Sequence record: MW630116.1
DNA from: Escherichia phage vB_EcoM-ZQ3
Direction: 5' to 3' (one strand)
Length of the DNA stretch: 64,000 bases
The notes under the pieces were generated by a model that was not told the origin of the DNA, did no database searches, and saw only the letters and a list, made by a program, of their open reading frames with translations. How positions within the stretch are numbered: position 1 is the stretch's first letter; each line of letters starts with the position of its first letter. Shown in pieces: positions 5,815 to 58,730 of this stretch. The translations under genes and the position numbers were made by a program.

Positions 5815-6183
5815 ATGATTGAAATTAAATTGAAGAACCCTGAAGATTTTCTAAAAGTCAAAGAGACTTTGACCCGTATGGGCATCGCTAATAACAAGGA
5901 TAAAGTCCTTTACCAGTCTTGTCATATCCTCCAAAAGCAAGGTAAGTACTATATCGTCCACTTTAAAGAAATGCTGCGTATGGACGGACGTCAGGTTGAT
6001 ATTGATGGTGAAGACTATCAGCGACGTGATTCGATTGCTCAGTTGCTTGAAGACTGGGGATTGATTGTTATTGAAGACTCTGCTCGTGAAGATCTGTTTG
6101 GCCTGACTAATAACTTCCGTGTTATCTCTTTTAAACAGAAAGATGACTGGACTTTGAAAGCAAAATATACAATTGGTAATTAA
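5815..6183 (+). CDS. regA: translational repressor RegA
   Basis: 122 aa from ATG 5815 (MIEIKLK...), matches recalled T4 RegA; TAA/ATG adjacency with gene 62. Confidence 0.88.
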   Translation: MIEIKLKNPEDFLKVKETLTRMGIANNKDKVLYQSCHILQKQGKYYIVHFKEMLRMDGRQVDIDGEDYQRRDSIAQLLEDWGLIVIEDSAREDLFGLTNNFRVISFKQKDDWTLKAKYTIGN

Positions 6184-6235
6184 AGCAATGGGACTTCGGT
6201 CCCATTTGGAGTATAATAAGTTCATCAACAAACAA

Positions 6236-11908: not shown

Positions 11909-11964
11909 TAATTTAAGTAAGACCTGCAAAAACCATCGCGTCAATTAACGTGAGATGCAAAAAA

Positions 11965-13125
11965 ATGAATACCTTTAAAATCGGAACGAATTTTGATTTA
12001 GCTCTTCTTGATAAAATCGTAGAGCTCAATAAAACTTATCCTAATAGCTTGATAAATGAAGTATACGGCTCTACAAGAGAAATGGCTTTTGTAGCAGCCA
12101 GACCTGATTTTAGGCTTCCTGACGTTGACAAAAAGATGTTAGAAGATTATGTTAAACGTTGTAACGAATTAGGTATTTGCTTTAACTATACACTCAACAC
12201 GATAAATCCTGGTTCAAAAAGAGAACTAGTTGAGTGGAAGAAGAAAGCTATTCAGGATTATGTTCAGTATCTTTGGTCAATAGGCGTATGGCGTATTACT
12301 ATCGCTAACCCTGTTGTTATGGAAATTGTTCGTGAAGTCAATAAAGACATTGAGATTGAAGTTTCAACAATTCTACATGTTGATGCTGTAACTCAAATCA
12401 AATACTTGCATGACCAGTATAATATCAAAAAGGTCTGCTGTGGAATTCATAAGAACCGTTCAGTTTCTTTCCTGAAGCGTGCAGCAGAGTTTTGCAATAA
12501 GAACAATATAATATTTGAAGTTCTCGTAAATGAATTCTGTTCTAATGCCGGTAAAGGGTATACAACACATTGTAGCTATCGTGACTCTTGCTATATTTTC
12601 CATAGCACAGATGTTACAGTAGATGATGCTAAATCCTTAAATGGATATCCAATGCAACACTGCATTAAAGCTCGTGATACAGACCCATTTAACTGGTTGA
12701 GAACTCGTTTTGTTCGTCCTCAAGATTTGAAACTTTATAATGATATTGGTATCACTCAATTCAAAGTTTCAGGACGTACAGGTAGCACAGACTACATTTT
12801 GAAAGTTCTTGAAGCTTATGCTTCTGAAAAATTTGAAGGTAATTTGTTGGAATTGTGGAAGCCTTTAGAGACCATTTTCACTCTTGAAAATGAGACCGAG
12901 TTTTCACATACGGTAAATATTGAAACCTCTTTGTTAGATGGCTTTTTAGAAAAAAGGTGGTTCAAACATCCAGATTTCGATTGTGCTAATGAAATCTGCG
13001 GGACGACGTGTACATATTGTGAAAGATATTATAAACGTCAGTTATCTAAAAATGGGTTATCAGAAAACTCTATATCTATTATTGATATAACTAACTCTGA
13101 CGACGCTTTGAGGTACCCAGAATGA
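11965..13125 (+). CDS. Cys-rich enzyme of uncertain family (possibly peptidase-U32-like Fe-S TIM-barrel protein)
   Basis: 386 aa from ATG 11965; cysteine clusters EFCSNAGKGYTTHCSYRDSC and C-terminal CANEICGTTCTYC; QFKVSGR resembles the U32 KIEGR-type motif; assignment tentative. Confidence 0.75.
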   Translation: MNTFKIGTNFDLALLDKIVELNKTYPNSLINEVYGSTREMAFVAARPDFRLPDVDKKMLEDYVKRCNELGICFNYTLNTINPGSKRELVEWKKKAIQDYVQYLWSIGVWRITIANPVVMEIVREVNKDIEIEVSTILHVDAVTQIKYLHDQYNIKKVCCGIHKNRSVSFLKRAAEFCNKNNIIFEVLVNEFCSNAGKGYTTHCSYRDSCYIFHSTDVTVDDAKSLNGYPMQHCIKARDTDPFNWLRTRFVRPQDLKLYNDIGITQFKVSGRTGSTDYILKVLEAYASEKFEGNLLELWKPLETIFTLENETEFSHTVNIETSLLDGFLEKRWFKHPDFDCANEICGTTCTYCERYYKRQLSKNGLSENSISIIDITNSDDALRYPE

Positions 13126-13283
13126 TTTCTAGAAAAACTTTTAACCACCAACTTAATGAAGAGATTTTGACTACGAAAATTAACAGCAACGAACAAATTC
13201 TTAAAAAGGCCCTGATGGGCCTGTTTGAAACTAAAGCGGCTAAAGTGATTAAAGAAACCTGTTCAACTAGAATACTATGCTGA
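13122..13283 (+). CDS. possible 53-aa small protein
   Basis: ATGA overlap with upstream stop; no homology recognised. Confidence 0.3.
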   Translation: MISRKTFNHQLNEEILTTKINSNEQILKKALMGLFETKAAKVIKETCSTRILC

Positions 13284-13359
13284 TGCATTTCTTCATAGTG
13301 TTCTTGGAAGTATCGATGCTGAAGCTTTACGTTATATCAACATTGTCAAGAAATTCAAA

Positions 13360-17185: not shown

Positions 17186-18628
17186 GTGGTAGAAATTATT
17201 TTGTCTCATCTAGTATACGACCAGGCTTATTTTTCTAAGGTCTGGCCTTATATGGATTCTGAGTATTTTGAGCGTGGACCGGCAAAAAATGTCTTTAAAA
17301 TTATAAAGAGCCACGTTAACGAATATAATGCAATGCCGTCTATCAATGCATTAAAGGTGGCTTTAGATAACAGTTCTTTAACTGAAGCCGAATATAAAGG
17401 AACTTCAGACCTAATTGAAAAATTGGCTGATACTCCTGAAGACCACGAATGGTTGGTTAAAGAAACTGAGAAATATGTCCAGCAAAAAGCGATGTATAAT
17501 GCTACATCCAAAATCATTGAGATTCAGTCTAATGCTGAACTACCTCCAGAACAACGTAACAAGAAAATGCCTGATGTAGGAGCTATTCCTGATATTATGC
17601 GTCAAGCACTTTCAATTTCGTTTGATAGTTATGTTGGACACGACTGGATGGAAGACTACGAAGCACGCTGGCTTTCTTATCTGAACAAAGCACGTAAGGT
17701 CCCGTTCAAATTAAACATTCTGAATAAAATCACTAAAGGTGGTGCTGAAACCGGTACACTGAATGTTTTAATGGCTGGTGTTAACGTTGGTAAATCTTTA
17801 GGCCTTTGTTCACTTGCTGCAGATTATCTTCAAACAGGTCATAATGTTCTTTATATTTCTATGGAAATGGCTGAAGAAGTTTGTGCTAAGCGTATAGATG
17901 CAAACATGCTTGACGTATCACTTGATGATATCGATGATGGTAACGTATCTTATGCTGAATATAAAGCCAAGATGGAAAAATGGCGTTCAAAATCCACATT
18001 AGGACGTTTAGTAGTTAAACAGTATCCTACTGGCGGAGCTAATGCTAATACATTCCGTGCATTGCTTAATGAATTGAAACTCAAGAAGAACTTTGTGCCA
18101 TCTGTAATCATGGTTGATTACTTAGGTATTTGTGGGTCTTGTCGTATCAGAGTTTACACTGAAAATAGTTACACATTAGTTAAAGCTATCGCAGAAGAAC
18201 TTCGTGCATTAGCAGTAGAATCTGAAACAGTTCTATGGACTGCAGCTCAAGTAGGACGTGCAGCATGGGATGCTTCGGATATGAACATGAGCGATATTGC
18301 AGAATCAGCAGGTTTACCAGCAACGGCAGATTTCATGTTGGCCGTAATTGAAACCGAAGAACTTGCACAAGCTGAACAACAACTTATCAAACAAATCAAA
18401 TCACGATACGGTGATAAGAATAAGTGGAATAAATTCCTGATGGGTGTACGTAAAGGCAACCAGAAATGGATTGAGATTGAGCAAGAAGGCATGAACACAC
18501 CTAACACAGTAAATGAAAACGCAGGTGCTCAGATGCGTCAGGCAGAGGTGAATCGTACGGAACGCGTAGGTAGAGCCAAAGCAACACGGGCTGACCTAGA
18601 TAGCTTAGCTAATGAGTTAAAATTTTAA
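17186..18628 (+). CDS. 41: replicative DNA helicase gp41 (DnaB-like)
   Basis: GTG start; 480 aa; Walker A GVNVGKS; N-terminus VEIILSHLVYDQAYFSKVWPYMDSEYFE matches recalled T4 gp41. Confidence 0.95.
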   Translation: MVEIILSHLVYDQAYFSKVWPYMDSEYFERGPAKNVFKIIKSHVNEYNAMPSINALKVALDNSSLTEAEYKGTSDLIEKLADTPEDHEWLVKETEKYVQQKAMYNATSKIIEIQSNAELPPEQRNKKMPDVGAIPDIMRQALSISFDSYVGHDWMEDYEARWLSYLNKARKVPFKLNILNKITKGGAETGTLNVLMAGVNVGKSLGLCSLAADYLQTGHNVLYISMEMAEEVCAKRIDANMLDVSLDDIDDGNVSYAEYKAKMEKWRSKSTLGRLVVKQYPTGGANANTFRALLNELKLKKNFVPSVIMVDYLGICGSCRIRVYTENSYTLVKAIAEELRALAVESETVLWTAAQVGRAAWDASDMNMSDIAESAGLPATADFMLAVIETEELAQAEQQLIKQIKSRYGDKNKWNKFLMGVRKGNQKWIEIEQEGMNTPNTVNENAGAQMRQAEVNRTERVGRAKATRADLDSLANELKF

Positions 18629-19720: not shown

Positions 19721-19969
19721 ATGGAATTATTCGTAGCTAGTTCAGTAGCTGTTTTAATCGCAGGTATTGGTTCAATCATCATTTACATGTTGCCTTGGGT
19801 AATCGCACTTATTCGTGGCACAAAAAACACAACAGCAATCTTCTTTGTATCTTTACTCTTTAACTGGACGATGATTGGTTGGATTGGAACTTTAATTTGG
19901 TCTATCGTTGCCGAAAAGAAATCTGCTCAGCAGCCTCAACAAGTAATTATTATTCGCGAAAAAGAATAA
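19721..19969 (+). CDS. small inner-membrane protein, superinfection-immunity (Imm)-like
   Basis: 82 aa, two hydrophobic segments; LPWVIALIRG...WTMIGWIGTLIWSI resembles the Imm superinfection-immunity family pattern as I recall it. Confidence 0.6.
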   Translation: MELFVASSVAVLIAGIGSIIIYMLPWVIALIRGTKNTTAIFFVSLLFNWTMIGWIGTLIWSIVAEKKSAQQPQQVIIIREKE

Positions 19970-21198: not shown

Positions 21199-21666
21199 AT
21201 GGGTATTATTAACACTGCAATAGATTCTGTTTATGCATATAAGTTTATTCGACTAATGCAAAAACCTTTTACCGAATGGAAAGCATACGAAGCCAAAATC
21301 ATCGATGACCGTGGAAGTGTTCTTAAACGTCCTTCTACTCCAGAAGAGAAAGCTGCGTATACACCTTTTCATGCTTCAGTTCGTTCAATGAAGCGAATGA
21401 TGAGCACTGTTCCAGGTCTTAATGGAATGGCCTCAATGATGTCTGCCTGGAGTGCTGTAGCTTCACGCTATAACATTACGGAAGAACAACAGAAAGAAAT
21501 ATTTAAAGAACTCCCTTTATTTGAGGATATGGTTGCTGGTGATTCAGGTGGCAGCCCTCAAGCTATTGCATCAGGAACAACTACAGGTGCAGTAGTAAAT
21601 AAAGGTCCAGAACAAATTCCTTCCAAGAAAAGAAAGCGAATTAAAGTAAATATTAATAAGTTGTGA
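21199..21666 (+). CDS. hypothetical protein
   Basis: ATG 21199 preceded by aggagg; basic C-terminal tail. Confidence 0.6.
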   Translation: MGIINTAIDSVYAYKFIRLMQKPFTEWKAYEAKIIDDRGSVLKRPSTPEEKAAYTPFHASVRSMKRMMSTVPGLNGMASMMSAWSAVASRYNITEEQQKEIFKELPLFEDMVAGDSGGSPQAIASGTTTGAVVNKGPEQIPSKKRKRIKVNINKL

Positions 21667-21707
21667 TAAGATGGCCCCTTATTAATTTAAGGCCTCTGGA
21701 GAATACT

Positions 21708-22730
21708 ATGGCTGAATGGATAGATAATGAATTTGCTTATCGCGCGTTTTCTCACCTACCTCGTTTTAGACAAATCAATAATTCAAGCACATTTAAATTA
21801 ACATTTCGATGTCCAGTTTGTGGCGACTCCCAGACAGATGCAATGAAAGCTCGCGGATGGTATTATGGCGGTACTCCTGGTAATGTACATTGTTATAATT
21901 GCCAATACCACAATACAATTTCCGGATACTTAAAAGAGTATGATGAAGAGCTTTATCGCGAATATCTAATGGAAGTTCGTAAAGAAAAAGCTAGAATGGA
22001 ACCAAAGATTGAAAAGGTTCCTGAAGCTAAGCCGGAGCCAGAGAAAAAGACTATAAATTCTTTGCCGTCTTGTTCTCGCCTGGACAAGCTGCCTGAAGAG
22101 CATCCTATTGTGAAATATGTTAAGTCTAGATGCATTCCTAAAGAATCATGGAATAGACTATGGTTCACATTAGAATGGCCTAAATTGGTCAACAAGATTC
22201 AACCTGGTACGTATAAGAAAGAGATTCCAGAACCACGTTTGGTGATTCCTATTTTTAATAAAGACGGGAAGGCTGAGTCATTCCAAGGACGTGCACTTCG
22301 TAAAGATGCTCCTCAGAAATATATCACTATTAAAGCGTTTGAGTCTGCAACAAAAATTTATGGTGTTGAACGTGTTAAGGAAGGAGACGTCTGGGTAATG
22401 GAAGGCCCTATTGATAGTTTATTCATACCCAATGCAATCGCTATTACAGGCGGCTCAATAGATTTAGATGTGGTACCATTTAAAGAACGTCGGGTATGGG
22501 TAATGGATAATGAACCTAGGCACCCGGATACTATAGCTCGCATGAAGCGATTAGTTGACGCAGGCGAACGTGTCATGTTCTGGGACCGAGCTCCATGGAG
22601 ATCAAAGGATGTGAATGATATGGTAATGAAAGAAAATGCAACACCACAAGAAATTTTAGAATATATGAAACAGAATATTTCAAGTGGGTTGCATGCTAAA
22701 ATGAGATTATCTCGTTATTCTAAGATTTAA
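21708..22730 (+). CDS. 61: DNA primase gp61
   Basis: zinc ribbon CPVCGDS...HCYNC; toprim MEGPIDS and VMDNE; ATG 21708 with ggag RBS. Confidence 0.9.
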   Translation: MAEWIDNEFAYRAFSHLPRFRQINNSSTFKLTFRCPVCGDSQTDAMKARGWYYGGTPGNVHCYNCQYHNTISGYLKEYDEELYREYLMEVRKEKARMEPKIEKVPEAKPEPEKKTINSLPSCSRLDKLPEEHPIVKYVKSRCIPKESWNRLWFTLEWPKLVNKIQPGTYKKEIPEPRLVIPIFNKDGKAESFQGRALRKDAPQKYITIKAFESATKIYGVERVKEGDVWVMEGPIDSLFIPNAIAITGGSIDLDVVPFKERRVWVMDNEPRHPDTIARMKRLVDAGERVMFWDRAPWRSKDVNDMVMKENATPQEILEYMKQNISSGLHAKMRLSRYSKI

Positions 22731-22924
22731 ACAAGCCCTATAATAGCAAAGGCCAAATCAACTACAGTATCCAATGGAACAGAAGGAACAATAACACCAT
22801 GGGCAACTAACAATGGCGCAATCACGAAGTTCCACGAAATAATGCCACCTACAACTATTGCAGCGATAGCAGTTTTCTTTTTATTGCCTTTAATAGCGTT
22901 GATTAACGATGGAAGTTTAAACAT
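22727..22924 (-). CDS. small membrane protein (65 aa) encoded antisense to the flanking early genes
   Basis: strong RBS aaggag 5 nt upstream of ATG on the - strand; hydrophobic two-segment sequence. Confidence 0.55.
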   Translation of the reverse strand: MFKLPSLINAIKGNKKKTAIAAIVVGGIISWNFVIAPLLVAHGVIVPSVPLDTVVDLAFAIIGLV

Positions 22925-23014
22925 AATATCTCCTTAGTTACCTTATTATTTATTACGCTTTATAAAATTAATGTTAGAATTAACTTCTCTTATACTGAAT
23001 TGAAAGGAAAAATA

Positions 23015-23536
23015 ATGGCACACTTTAACGAATGTTCACAACTTATTTCTGGTGTTGATAAAGCAGAAGAAGCTTATTTTAATGCTCTGATTCACGAAGA
23101 TAAAGACCCACTGCAGGTAATGCTTGATATGCAGAAATCTTTACAGGTTCGTCTGGCAAATGACAAGCCTGAACATAACAAACATCCTGATGAATTGGCT
23201 ACTGCTGGTGATGTTGTTGATTGGCTGCGTAATCAGAAAGATTATATTGATGATGAATTCCGTGAACTGCTGACTTCACTTGGTGGTATGAGCAATGGTG
23301 AAAAGGCCGCTAGCTCTGTATGGAAGCCGTGGAAGGCCCAGCATGCTGAATATCGAAATCGTCGTATCGATGAACTGTCTCCTGAAGACCAGCTTGAAAT
23401 TAAATTCGAGATGATTGATATTCTGCATTTCGTTCTAAATATGTTCCAAGGTCTAGGACTTTCTGCTGAAGAAATCTTCAAACTGTATTACCTGAAAAAC
23501 CAACACAACTTTGAACGCCAGGATAATGGTTACTAA
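23015..23536 (+). CDS. 56: dCTP pyrophosphatase gp56 (MazG-like)
   Basis: starts MAHFNEC; DPLQVMLDMQ, ETAGDVV, EIKFE and FKLYYLKN match recalled T4 gp56. Confidence 0.9.
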   Translation: MAHFNECSQLISGVDKAEEAYFNALIHEDKDPLQVMLDMQKSLQVRLANDKPEHNKHPDELATAGDVVDWLRNQKDYIDDEFRELLTSLGGMSNGEKAASSVWKPWKAQHAEYRNRRIDELSPEDQLEIKFEMIDILHFVLNMFQGLGLSAEEIFKLYYLKNQHNFERQDNGY

Positions 23537-23542
23537 TTAAGT

Positions 23543-23550
23543 TATAAATA
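23543..23550 (+). promoter_or_regulatory. late promoter TATAAATA upstream of soc
   Basis: exact TATAAATA about 32 nt before the soc ATG. Confidence 0.6.
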
Positions 23551-23581
23551 CACCTGTAATTAAACAACAAAGGAGTTAATT

Positions 23582-23818
23582 ATGGGTGGTTATGTAAACA
23601 TCAAAACCTTTACGCATCCTGCAGGTGAAGGCAAAGAAGTTAAAGGTATGGAAGTTTCTGTACCGTTTGAGATTTATTCAAACGAACATCGGATTGCAGA
23701 TTCTCATTATCAGACTTTCCCGTCTGAAAAAGCTGCTTATACAACGGTAGTAACTGATGCTGCTGACTGGAAGACCAAGAACGCAGCAATGTTCACGCCT
23801 ACACCAGTAAGCGGTTAA
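23582..23818 (+). CDS. soc: small outer capsid protein Soc
   Basis: 78 aa; GYVNIKTF...HYQTFPSEKAAY matches recalled T4 Soc. Confidence 0.9.
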   Translation: MGGYVNIKTFTHPAGEGKEVKGMEVSVPFEIYSNEHRIADSHYQTFPSEKAAYTTVVTDAADWKTKNAAMFTPTPVSG

Positions 23819-46282: not shown

Positions 46283-46942
46283 TTATTTGGCCCTTCCTAG
46301 TATTCGGATTGCTTGGTTGCATATAGCCGCTAAGCGATCTTCCTCAAGTATATTACTCCCCTTATACCAATACATCGTCACAGTTCCAGCATAGATGTTA
46401 TCCAAATTAAAGTATGGGCAACTATACATATAAGAAAGTTCGGCGGTCTTAGATTTTGTAGGCAAAAATGCAAATTCTGATTTAGATGAGAAATGACGGC
46501 CACTTAAATGAATTATATATTCATTGGCCGTTTTATCCACAGGGAATCCGCCAAGGGACTTTTCAGAAATTGTGCTAGGTAGTTTGCCTTCGTAAGCTAT
46601 AAGGTCGACGAAATAATTTAAGTTTTTAGGTCTGAAAGAATACACAGCACTAAAATCTGCACCAGATGAGATATGAACTATTTGCAGTTGTTCTAGAGCC
46701 GCAGATTCAAAACGTAAAGCTCGTTCTTTTTGGATTATTTCAGTATAAGTATCATACTTAGCTCTTACATAATAATCCAGCAAAATACTTCCTTTGTACC
46801 ATATTAGTGCCATTAGGAACAAAAGAATAATTACCGCTACTCGAGACATTAAAACCTTTCCAGTAGCGTTATCTTTGAAAATACGATCTAGCAACCCAAA
46901 TAGAATATCACTAGGCGAAGATGATACTTTTGGTGTTGCCAT
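46283..46942 (-). CDS. t: holin t
   Basis: 219 aa; SPSDILFGLLDRIFKDNATGKVL... matches recalled T4 holin. Confidence 0.93.
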   Translation of the reverse strand: MATPKVSSSPSDILFGLLDRIFKDNATGKVLMSRVAVIILLFLMALIWYKGSILLDYYVRAKYDTYTEIIQKERALRFESAALEQLQIVHISSGADFSAVYSFRPKNLNYFVDLIAYEGKLPSTISEKSLGGFPVDKTANEYIIHLSGRHFSSKSEFAFLPTKSKTAELSYMYSCPYFNLDNIYAGTVTMYWYKGSNILEEDRLAAICNQAIRILGRAK

Positions 46943-50679: not shown

Positions 50680-51345
50680 TTAATAATAGCCGAAATCTTG
50701 AACAGAATCTTTAATTACAATCTGGTCGAAACGAGGAACATGATTAGCCTCAGACGCCGGATTCTGTGAGAAAAAGTTTGGTGCTGTTAAAGTACCAGCC
50801 ATGGTATCGCCAGAACGCAATACACGGGAATTTGCGTTATCTGTAACAATATTTATTCGTCCATCAACGTAATCTTTTCTTGTGAGATCATTCGCTGCTA
50901 TAGGAGCAGTAGCGTTAGAACGGACAGGTCCAGTTGCATAAACCCCGCCCTTAGTGCTGATATCACCGGTACGAGTGTTAATAACCACAGTACGTAATGC
51001 AGAACCTTGAGAAGATTTAAATCCAATGCCATACCATGAAACAATATCAATGTTTGTCATATCATATGTTGCAGCATCACCGTTGCCCGGGAAAATACCA
51101 CTTTGATTTGTGTTATTTACGGCATAAGGTATTTGCACACCATTATTAAATGTTACTCGAGAGGCATACGTACCACCATTAGCTTTAGAAACGAAATCGT
51201 TATCAGCAGCTTGTGGTTTATTATATTCTGAATAGAGTTTAAACGTTTTATACAGGACGTCATCACCTGCTGGCATTAAAGGGAAATTACCTTGATGCCA
51301 TATAACGGCACCACCAGTTGTACTACCAGCTTTTAAATCGGCCAT
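50680..51345 (-). CDS. 36: long tail fiber subunit gp36
   Basis: 221 aa, same size and position as T4 gp36. Confidence 0.9.
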
Positions 51346-58707: not shown

Positions 58708-58730
58708 TACTTTATAAATAAATCATACCA

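Follow-up and report, generated by a model that had tools for sequence, protein, structure and literature searches.

A small gene between dam and gene 61 in T4

In the reference genome of bacteriophage T4, a gap of 309 nt separates dam from gene 61 (17626–17934 of NC_000866; 2627–2935 of the extracted locus L003), and no CDS is annotated in this gap in NC_000866, AF158101 or MT984581. A reading frame of 66 aa sits there (17738–17938, + strand of NC_000866), which the T4T record lists as gene dam.1, 'hypothetical protein' (HM137666.1; ADJ39749.1), and for which the orthologue in RB51 carries the name RB32ORF030w. The names given to these proteins in the protein collections are all 'hypothetical' or 'uncharacterized', except for a UniRef entry from phage OE5505, which is called 'Holin' (A0A482MZV5). 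Literature searches covering dam.1, Ribo-seq and small reading frames of T4, and maps of antisense or late start sites found no paper naming this gene, and in two T4 omics papers antisense and unannotated reading frames were not treated; a T4 dRNA-seq preprint (10.1101/2024.04.04.588121) reports 22 antisense transcription start sites. The T4 reference annotation omits dam.1, and expression studies that count annotated genes only therefore miss it. The gene is already known as an annotated hypothetical protein.

Late genes of T4 are read from promoters with the sequence TATAAATA at –13 to –6, of which the commonest variant has A at –13 (9 of 50 T4 sites; PMC2988020). RB69 and other relatives show little conservation of the –13 base (PMC1524935). 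G or C at –13 are not among the common T4 variants.

Here we describe the counterpart of dam.1 in Escherichia phage vB_EcoM-ZQ3 (MW630116.1), as found in a stretch of 64,000 nt of its genome, hereafter the window. The features of the locus are as follows.

22727–22924, – strand: CDS of the Dam.1 orthologue, a predicted membrane microprotein of 65 aa (ORF list, phrog_2024 match, dN/dS, annotation of relatives)
22930–22935, – strand: Shine–Dalgarno sequence AAGGAG, separated from the ATG by 5 nt (read from the sequence)
22947–22954, – strand: putative late (gp55-type) promoter motif AATAAATA (motif location, conservation in relatives)
22727–22730, tail to tail: TTAA, in which the stop codons of gene 61 (+) and the small gene (–) overlap
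21708–22730, + strand: gene 61, DNA primase, the convergent neighbour (phrog_47, E 5e-102)
23015–23536, + strand: gene 56, dCTPase/NTP pyrophosphohydrolase, the divergent neighbour (phrog_173, E 1.6e-45)

The T4 protein is the orthologue of the window protein (55.6% identity, tblastn E 1e-13), and the two genes agree in further respects. Both occupy the same site, converge on gene 61 with overlapping stop codons, and have the same orientation with respect to the early genes; both encode 65–66 aa, at about 55% identity, behind the same arrangement of ATAAATA and Shine–Dalgarno sequence. They differ in that T4 has dam between the small gene and gene 56, whereas in the window gene 56 follows directly, and in the base at –13, which is G in T4 and A in the window. 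The locus is the Mosigvirus orthologue of dam.1, and we consider it probable that it encodes a late-transcribed, 65-aa protein passing once through the inner membrane.

The locus in a Mosigvirus genome

The window belongs to a T4-like Mosigvirus genome: a megablast search with positions 21600–23600 returned 154 full-length matches, all of them Mosigvirus (Tevenvirinae), the best being phage PNJ-9 at 98.6%, followed by ST0, F2 and HX01. Early and middle genes are read along the + strand of the window, and late genes, among them t and the tail-fibre genes, lie on the – strand beyond 46 kb. The primase reading frame starts at 21663 or 21708 and ends at 22730 (+), and annotations of the flanking genes as primase and dCTPase agree in near-identical genomes. 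The 284-nt interval between genes 61 and 56 is covered by no + strand reading frame of more than 31 codons in the ORF list, and on the – strand it holds the small gene, which runs from an ATG at 22924–22922 to a TAA at 22729–22727 and encodes the 65-aa product MFKLPSLINAIKGNKKKTAIAAIVVGGIISWNFVIAPLLVAHGVIVPSVPLDTVVDLAFAIIGLV.

The earlier note, made from the sequence alone, had placed here a – strand gene with an AAGGAG ribosome-binding site and a hydrophobic 65-aa product, between genes 61 and 56, and this description is confirmed by the sequence and by the phrog matches. It had also called the gene the only convincing – strand gene of the early region, which is essentially right: a greedy ORF map, in which – strand candidates before 46 kb were considered, gave two others. 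One of these (5851–6231) was rejected as a shadow of regA on the + strand. The second (13091–13288, 65 aa) is ambiguous, as it competes with a translationally coupled + strand reading frame of 53 aa (13122–13283) that shares an ATGA overlap with the gene upstream; the two fill a gap between early genes, and neither has a Pfam match. A 387-aa protein with a Peptidase_U32 domain (E 6e-11) is encoded at 11962–13125 (+), in the early region ahead of the uvsX–41 block, where T4's beta-glucosyltransferase gene would be expected. It may have to do with a DNA modification that differs in this group of phages.

Coding status and conservation

In this AT-rich genome the ORF list of the window contains many antisense shadow reading frames of 60–90 aa, so the length of the small reading frame is not significant by itself and the case for a gene rests on comparative evidence. 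What sets this frame apart from the shadows is that it is uncovered on the + strand, has a Shine–Dalgarno sequence, is under purifying selection, and recurs in 692 phage records. Its product matches phrog_2024, a family for which a function is not given, over the full length of both (E 1.1e-27; residues 1–65 against profile positions 1–65 of 65). In a tblastn search, 685 of the 692 records cover at least 80% of the reading frame. Phage ZQ3 has the same protein under the accession QWY13252.1, and in ST0, ChristianSchoenbein and others the gene carries the label 'hypothetical protein'.

By the Nei–Gojobori method, dN/dS among ten orthologues of the coding sequence, taken from Mosigvirus, Tequatrovirus and Gaprivervirus, is 0.05–0.2 wherever dS is unsaturated. 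Between the window and gene L012A, for example, pS is 0.39 and pN 0.068 (omega 0.13), and for the window and L011A it is 0.11. The numbers of variable columns in the alignment are 47, 20 and 61 at codon positions 1, 2 and 3. Three residues, W31, N32 and P37, are invariant in the family down to about 20% identity, and G43, P47 and V49 are nearly so. The core motif W-N-x4-P-x5-G-x3-P-x-V is fully present in the window protein. The reading frame at 22727–22924 is thus a real gene under purifying selection. The earlier note had proposed conservation in related phages as a check, and had named a frame not shared by relatives as one sign against the gene; its retention in 692 phage records, T4 among them, settles this point decisively. 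The Shine–Dalgarno core AGGAG(G) is retained at the equivalent position in all orthologous loci, and the 4-nt TTAA overlap recurs in T4, SA20RB, ESCO47, VR25 (where the overlapping gene is paralogue B), L014, Marfa and L027.

In some isolates the gene is damaged or shortened. Phages a48 (1983–2108 of L008) and ERS-1 (H97) have copies frameshifted by 1 nt, and phages a20 (2001–2189 of L007) and OE5505 (P0096) have in-frame deletions of three residues within the membrane helix. Growth in the laboratory therefore does not require the gene; dam.1 is a non-essential accessory gene that can be lost in culture.

A putative late promoter ahead of the gene

On the – strand, 22 nt before the ATG, stands AATAAATA, which has the form of a T4 late promoter with A at –13. 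Such motifs are scarce in this genome. WATAAATA occurs seven times on the two strands of the 64-kb window (22947, 23543, 46963, 50850, 51370, 56450 and 58713), against 16.2 ± 4.1 in shuffled sequences, and ATAAATA occurs 11 times against 27.6 expected; every shuffle had at least as many of either motif as the window. The motif is therefore avoided, and its under-representation suggests selection against stray late promoters. Five of the seven WATAAATA sites lie 20–31 nt before the Shine–Dalgarno sequence and ATG of late genes, namely the small gene itself, soc, the holin gene t, a tail-fibre gene, and a gene for a tail-fibre-like protein of 1291 aa, which we take to be gene 34. As for the other two sites, the one at 58713–58720 (+) is the consensus TATAAATA, with no ATG in the 60 nt downstream, and the one at 50850–50857 (–) is AATAAATA, with no nearby Shine–Dalgarno sequence or long reading frame downstream, and appears to lie inside coding sequence.

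The motif is kept across relatives. In 13 of 14 T4-like loci an ATAAATA heptamer begins 21–29 nt before the cassette's first ATG, and these include L013 and L014, the proteins of which are only about 23% identical to that of the window. The surrounding bases vary from locus to locus, and so does the base at –13, which may be A, G, C or T; L012 and phage Marfa have a perfect TATAAATA, and the single locus lacking the heptamer, L027, has ATTAAATA. In the Lutter record an 8-nt promoter is annotated at the equivalent place. This conservation is a phylogenetic footprint of what would be a late promoter, as judged from a motif of 7–8 nt. With the –13 to –6 geometry of T4, transcription would start near 22941 and the leader would be about 17 nt long; the corresponding start in T4 would be at about 17,722 (+). 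The earlier note had argued from the opposite orientation that the gene has a promoter of its own and is possibly expressed late, and the placement of AATAAATA, together with the heptamer in 13 of the 14 loci, supports both parts of that suggestion, although it is from sequence that we infer late expression.

Parallels are soc and other T4 late genes set into the early region. Like the small gene as predicted here, soc, about 650 bp away, is a short late gene within a block of early and middle genes, and it is read with a short leader from a TATAAATA-type promoter of its own; in soc, TATAAATA stands 31 nt before the ATG. Unlike the small gene, soc lies on the early-gene strand and encodes a capsid decoration protein, whereas Dam.1 is encoded on the opposite strand and is a predicted membrane protein.

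On the + strand, GCTT-N14-TAGAAT at 22957–22980 resembles a MotA-dependent middle promoter for gene 56. This element and the putative late promoter lie back to back, a few bases apart. In T4 the promoter region of gene 56 is the replication origin oriA.

Predicted structure and topology of the protein

An AlphaFold2 (AF2) model built with an alignment of 56 sequences (pLDDT 80) places helices at residues 4–11, 15–41 and 51–61, the second being 27 residues long, with a loop at 42–50. The window protein has five Lys in the flank N-terminal to the hydrophobic stretch, whereas the C-terminal flank has neither Lys nor Arg, contains two Asp, and ends in AFAIIGLV. This asymmetry is general in the family: across 66 members Lys and Arg together average 4.3 on the N-terminal side of the stretch and 0.23 on the C-terminal side, and the N flank has more in 64 of the 66. 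By the positive-inside rule, this predicts an N-in/C-out orientation, that is, a single-pass membrane protein with its basic N-terminus probably in the cytoplasm and its short acidic tail outside. Together with the low dN/dS (0.05–0.2) and the invariant residues, the modelled helix at 15–41 and the Lys and Arg asymmetry bear out the proposal that this is a genuine gene for a small, presumably membrane-inserted protein.

A conserved Asn in the middle of a membrane helix is a classic driver of helix–helix association, so oligomerization or binding to a partner membrane protein may be expected of Dam.1. The bacterial microproteins MgrB and AcrZ, single-pass proteins that bind larger membrane proteins, resemble Dam.1 in size, in having a single helix, and in carrying a conserved polar residue in that helix, features that hint at helix–helix binding; they show no homology to Dam.1, and the analogy is functional only.

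Distribution, paralogues and distant members

Among T4-like phages the gene always adjoins the 3' end of gene 61 and runs against the early genes. The site is occupied in the Tequatrovirus, Mosigvirus and Gaprivervirus genomes sampled, and in the T4-like Klebsiella and Salmonella phages sampled. It is empty in Slopekvirus Matisse, Krischvirus GEC-3S, Aeromonas phage 31.2 (Biquartavirus) and Acinetobacter phage Konradin (Lazarusvirus), in all four of which gene 61 abuts the next + strand gene.

The proteins fall into two paralogue clades, about 25% identical to each other, with W31, N32 and P37 invariant across both. Clade A, to which the window and T4 proteins belong, starts with MxKLxxLIxAIKGxKK, and clade B with MGTxFYQIWKL. 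Klebsiella phages have B alone, while other phages carry the two in tandem, in the order A–B in VR25 (2001–2407 of L005) and B–A in ESCO47-like phages, the pairs examined including those at 2305–2698 of L009 and L011 and at 2285–2698 of L012; phage PSD2001 retains only a decayed remnant of its B copy (2199–2306 of L006). In tandem pairs the late-promoter motif is present before the first gene only.

Beyond the T4-like phages the family is sparse. Searched against 1.84 billion representative proteins, the family profile matched only 17, and no family of known function was among them. Distant members outside the T4-like phages are few, and no primase gene lies beside them. In two unrelated contigs from non-T4 phages (5260–6210 of L015 and 5272–6159 of L021) the family member lies just after the tail genes and is preceded by the same gene pair, one encoding a 94-aa protein and the other an endonuclease VII; in L015 the 94-aa neighbour combines a membrane helix with a coiled coil. 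Elsewhere a distant member stands at the end of a prophage, adjoining host genes (L019), or precedes a gene with a RelA_SpoT domain (L020). These places are typical positions of accessory genes, not lysis cassettes.

Alternative readings of the locus

The hydrophobic stretch could also be read as a cleavable signal peptide, from which a secreted peptide of about 22 residues (VIVPSVPLDTVVDLAFAIIGLV) would be released after A-H-G43. The architecture fits in part, with a basic n-region, a hydrophobic core, small residues at –3 and –1 (A41 and G43, the latter nearly invariant) and a Pro at –7. The core itself does not: it spans about 23–24 residues, modelled as part of one continuous helix from 15 to 41, against the 7–15 expected of an h-region. 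Membrane anchors usually have cores of this length, whereas those of signal peptides are shorter. The invariant W31, N32 and P37 lie within it, which would be unexpected in a disposable leader, and some members have Phe at –3. We regard a secreted peptide as quite improbable. A further alternative is that the product is not a protein at all, and that a late antisense RNA would run into the 3' end of gene 61, pair with residual early/middle 61–56 RNA and shut off primase expression late, the reading frame being incidental. A terminator scan of the window found no intrinsic terminator between the reading frame and gene 61, so late transcripts may indeed run antisense into the primase gene; the 4-nt tail-to-tail overlap with gene 61 is widely conserved, and at certain sites T4 is known to read both strands, though not at the same time (PMC2988020). 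Against this stand the strong constraint at the protein level (dN/dS 0.05–0.2), residues that are invariant across paralogues about 20% identical, the conserved Shine–Dalgarno sequence, and the family members outside the T4-like phages, which lack the primase neighbour. In addition, L009 (2699–2716) and L013 (5596–5602 and flanks) have a short GC hairpin, AGGGAGgaaaCTCCCT or AGGGGttacaCCCCT, inserted at precisely the point that separates the small gene from the primase stop codon. Neither the window nor T4 has this hairpin, which resembles a bidirectional terminator and would stop read-through, so antisense read-through as an obligatory feature is not conserved. An Rfam scan of 22300–23300 found no RNA family. 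An antisense RNA as the functional product thus seems to us very improbable, while an antisense side effect may accompany the function of the protein.

If the protein is the product, its size, hydrophobicity and predicted late expression would suggest a holin or holin-like lysis protein, and 'Holin' is the label that UniProt, UniRef and BFVD attach to the OE5505 orthologue (A0A482MZV5). Profile searches gave sub-threshold GTA_holin_3TM hits in 3 of 20 members (best E 0.03) and a match of the window protein to Phage_holin_10 at E 2.7, all Pfam holin hits being far below the gathering scores. Among four features of holins, a transmembrane domain in a small protein is predicted by the AF2 helix at 15–41 and the hydropathy profile, whereas a charged C-terminal domain, a lysis neighbourhood and a profile match are all lacking: the C-terminus, which is hydrophobic and acidic, has no basic tail on the cytoplasmic side, and the neighbours are the primase and dCTPase genes, with no endolysin or spanin gene adjoining, just as the copies in non-T4 relatives are not adjacent to a lysozyme gene. 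Moreover, the phage already has a T-type holin (46283–46942; PF11031, E 6.6e-91) behind a consensus late promoter. Dam.1 would share with T4 holin T and the small class II holins that it is late, membrane-inserted and phage-encoded, but it has no sequence or profile relationship to them and lacks a charged C-terminal tail, a large periplasmic domain and a lysis cassette. A holin function is, in our judgement, improbable.

Possible role in late infection

Homology offers no guide to the function. Scans of the window protein and 20 diverse members against Pfam, NCBIfam and PADLOC gave nothing above threshold, and neither a PDB sequence search nor a Foldseek comparison of the AF2 model with PDB and BFVD brought up anything but the protein's own orthologue; with no homology to any protein of known function, the functional part of what follows is conjecture. 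The T4 superinfection immunity protein Imm, which is encoded nearby (19721–19969, +), is a small inner-membrane protein of T-even phages, as Dam.1 is predicted to be, but it is early, lies on the + strand and has two hydrophobic segments. A relationship between the two was rejected (hhalign probability 0.1%).

We suggest that the gene would be silent while the early/middle unit from 61 to 56 is read on the opposite strand, and that after the onset of replication RNA polymerase with gp55 would transcribe it from its own AATAAATA late promoter, giving a message with a leader of about 17 nt and a strong Shine–Dalgarno sequence. The predicted product, a 65-aa single-pass protein of the inner membrane, would keep a basic amphipathic N-terminus (residues 1–17, with five Lys) in the cytoplasm and span the membrane with one long helix (about 18–41) containing the invariant Trp–Asn pair and the invariant Pro; on the periplasmic side it would expose the G-x3-P-x-V loop, which begins at the near-invariant Gly, and a short acidic amphipathic helix (51–61). 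Through its polar Asn in mid-membrane the helix may pack against itself or against a partner membrane protein.

If it does, this small protein could modulate some process of the envelope from within the membrane late in infection, a guess that we hold with low confidence. Exclusion of incoming phage DNA, or protection against it, is one tentative possibility, and the tuning of lysis timing or lysis inhibition is another, slightly less likely one; the remaining and larger share of the probability we leave to some other function. A broader conjecture, which we rate as unlikely, is that Dam.1 is an overlooked late envelope factor of T-even phages including T4, one that might for example bind a host or phage inner-membrane protein, with the A and B paralogues interchangeable or hetero-oligomeric. 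Control of lysis inhibition, late superinfection exclusion and membrane integrity are roles that, with equally little likelihood, such a factor might have.

The locus is no new kind of element, the gene being already annotated as hypothetical in hundreds of T4-like genomes. It offers a clean case of a putatively late gene reversed inside an early transcription unit, with a predicted late promoter that is footprinted across relatives and in which –13 is free to vary. T4, the best-studied phage, carries this conserved gene where its reference annotation shows no gene at all, and Dam.1 would be a near-universal membrane microprotein of the T-even phages.
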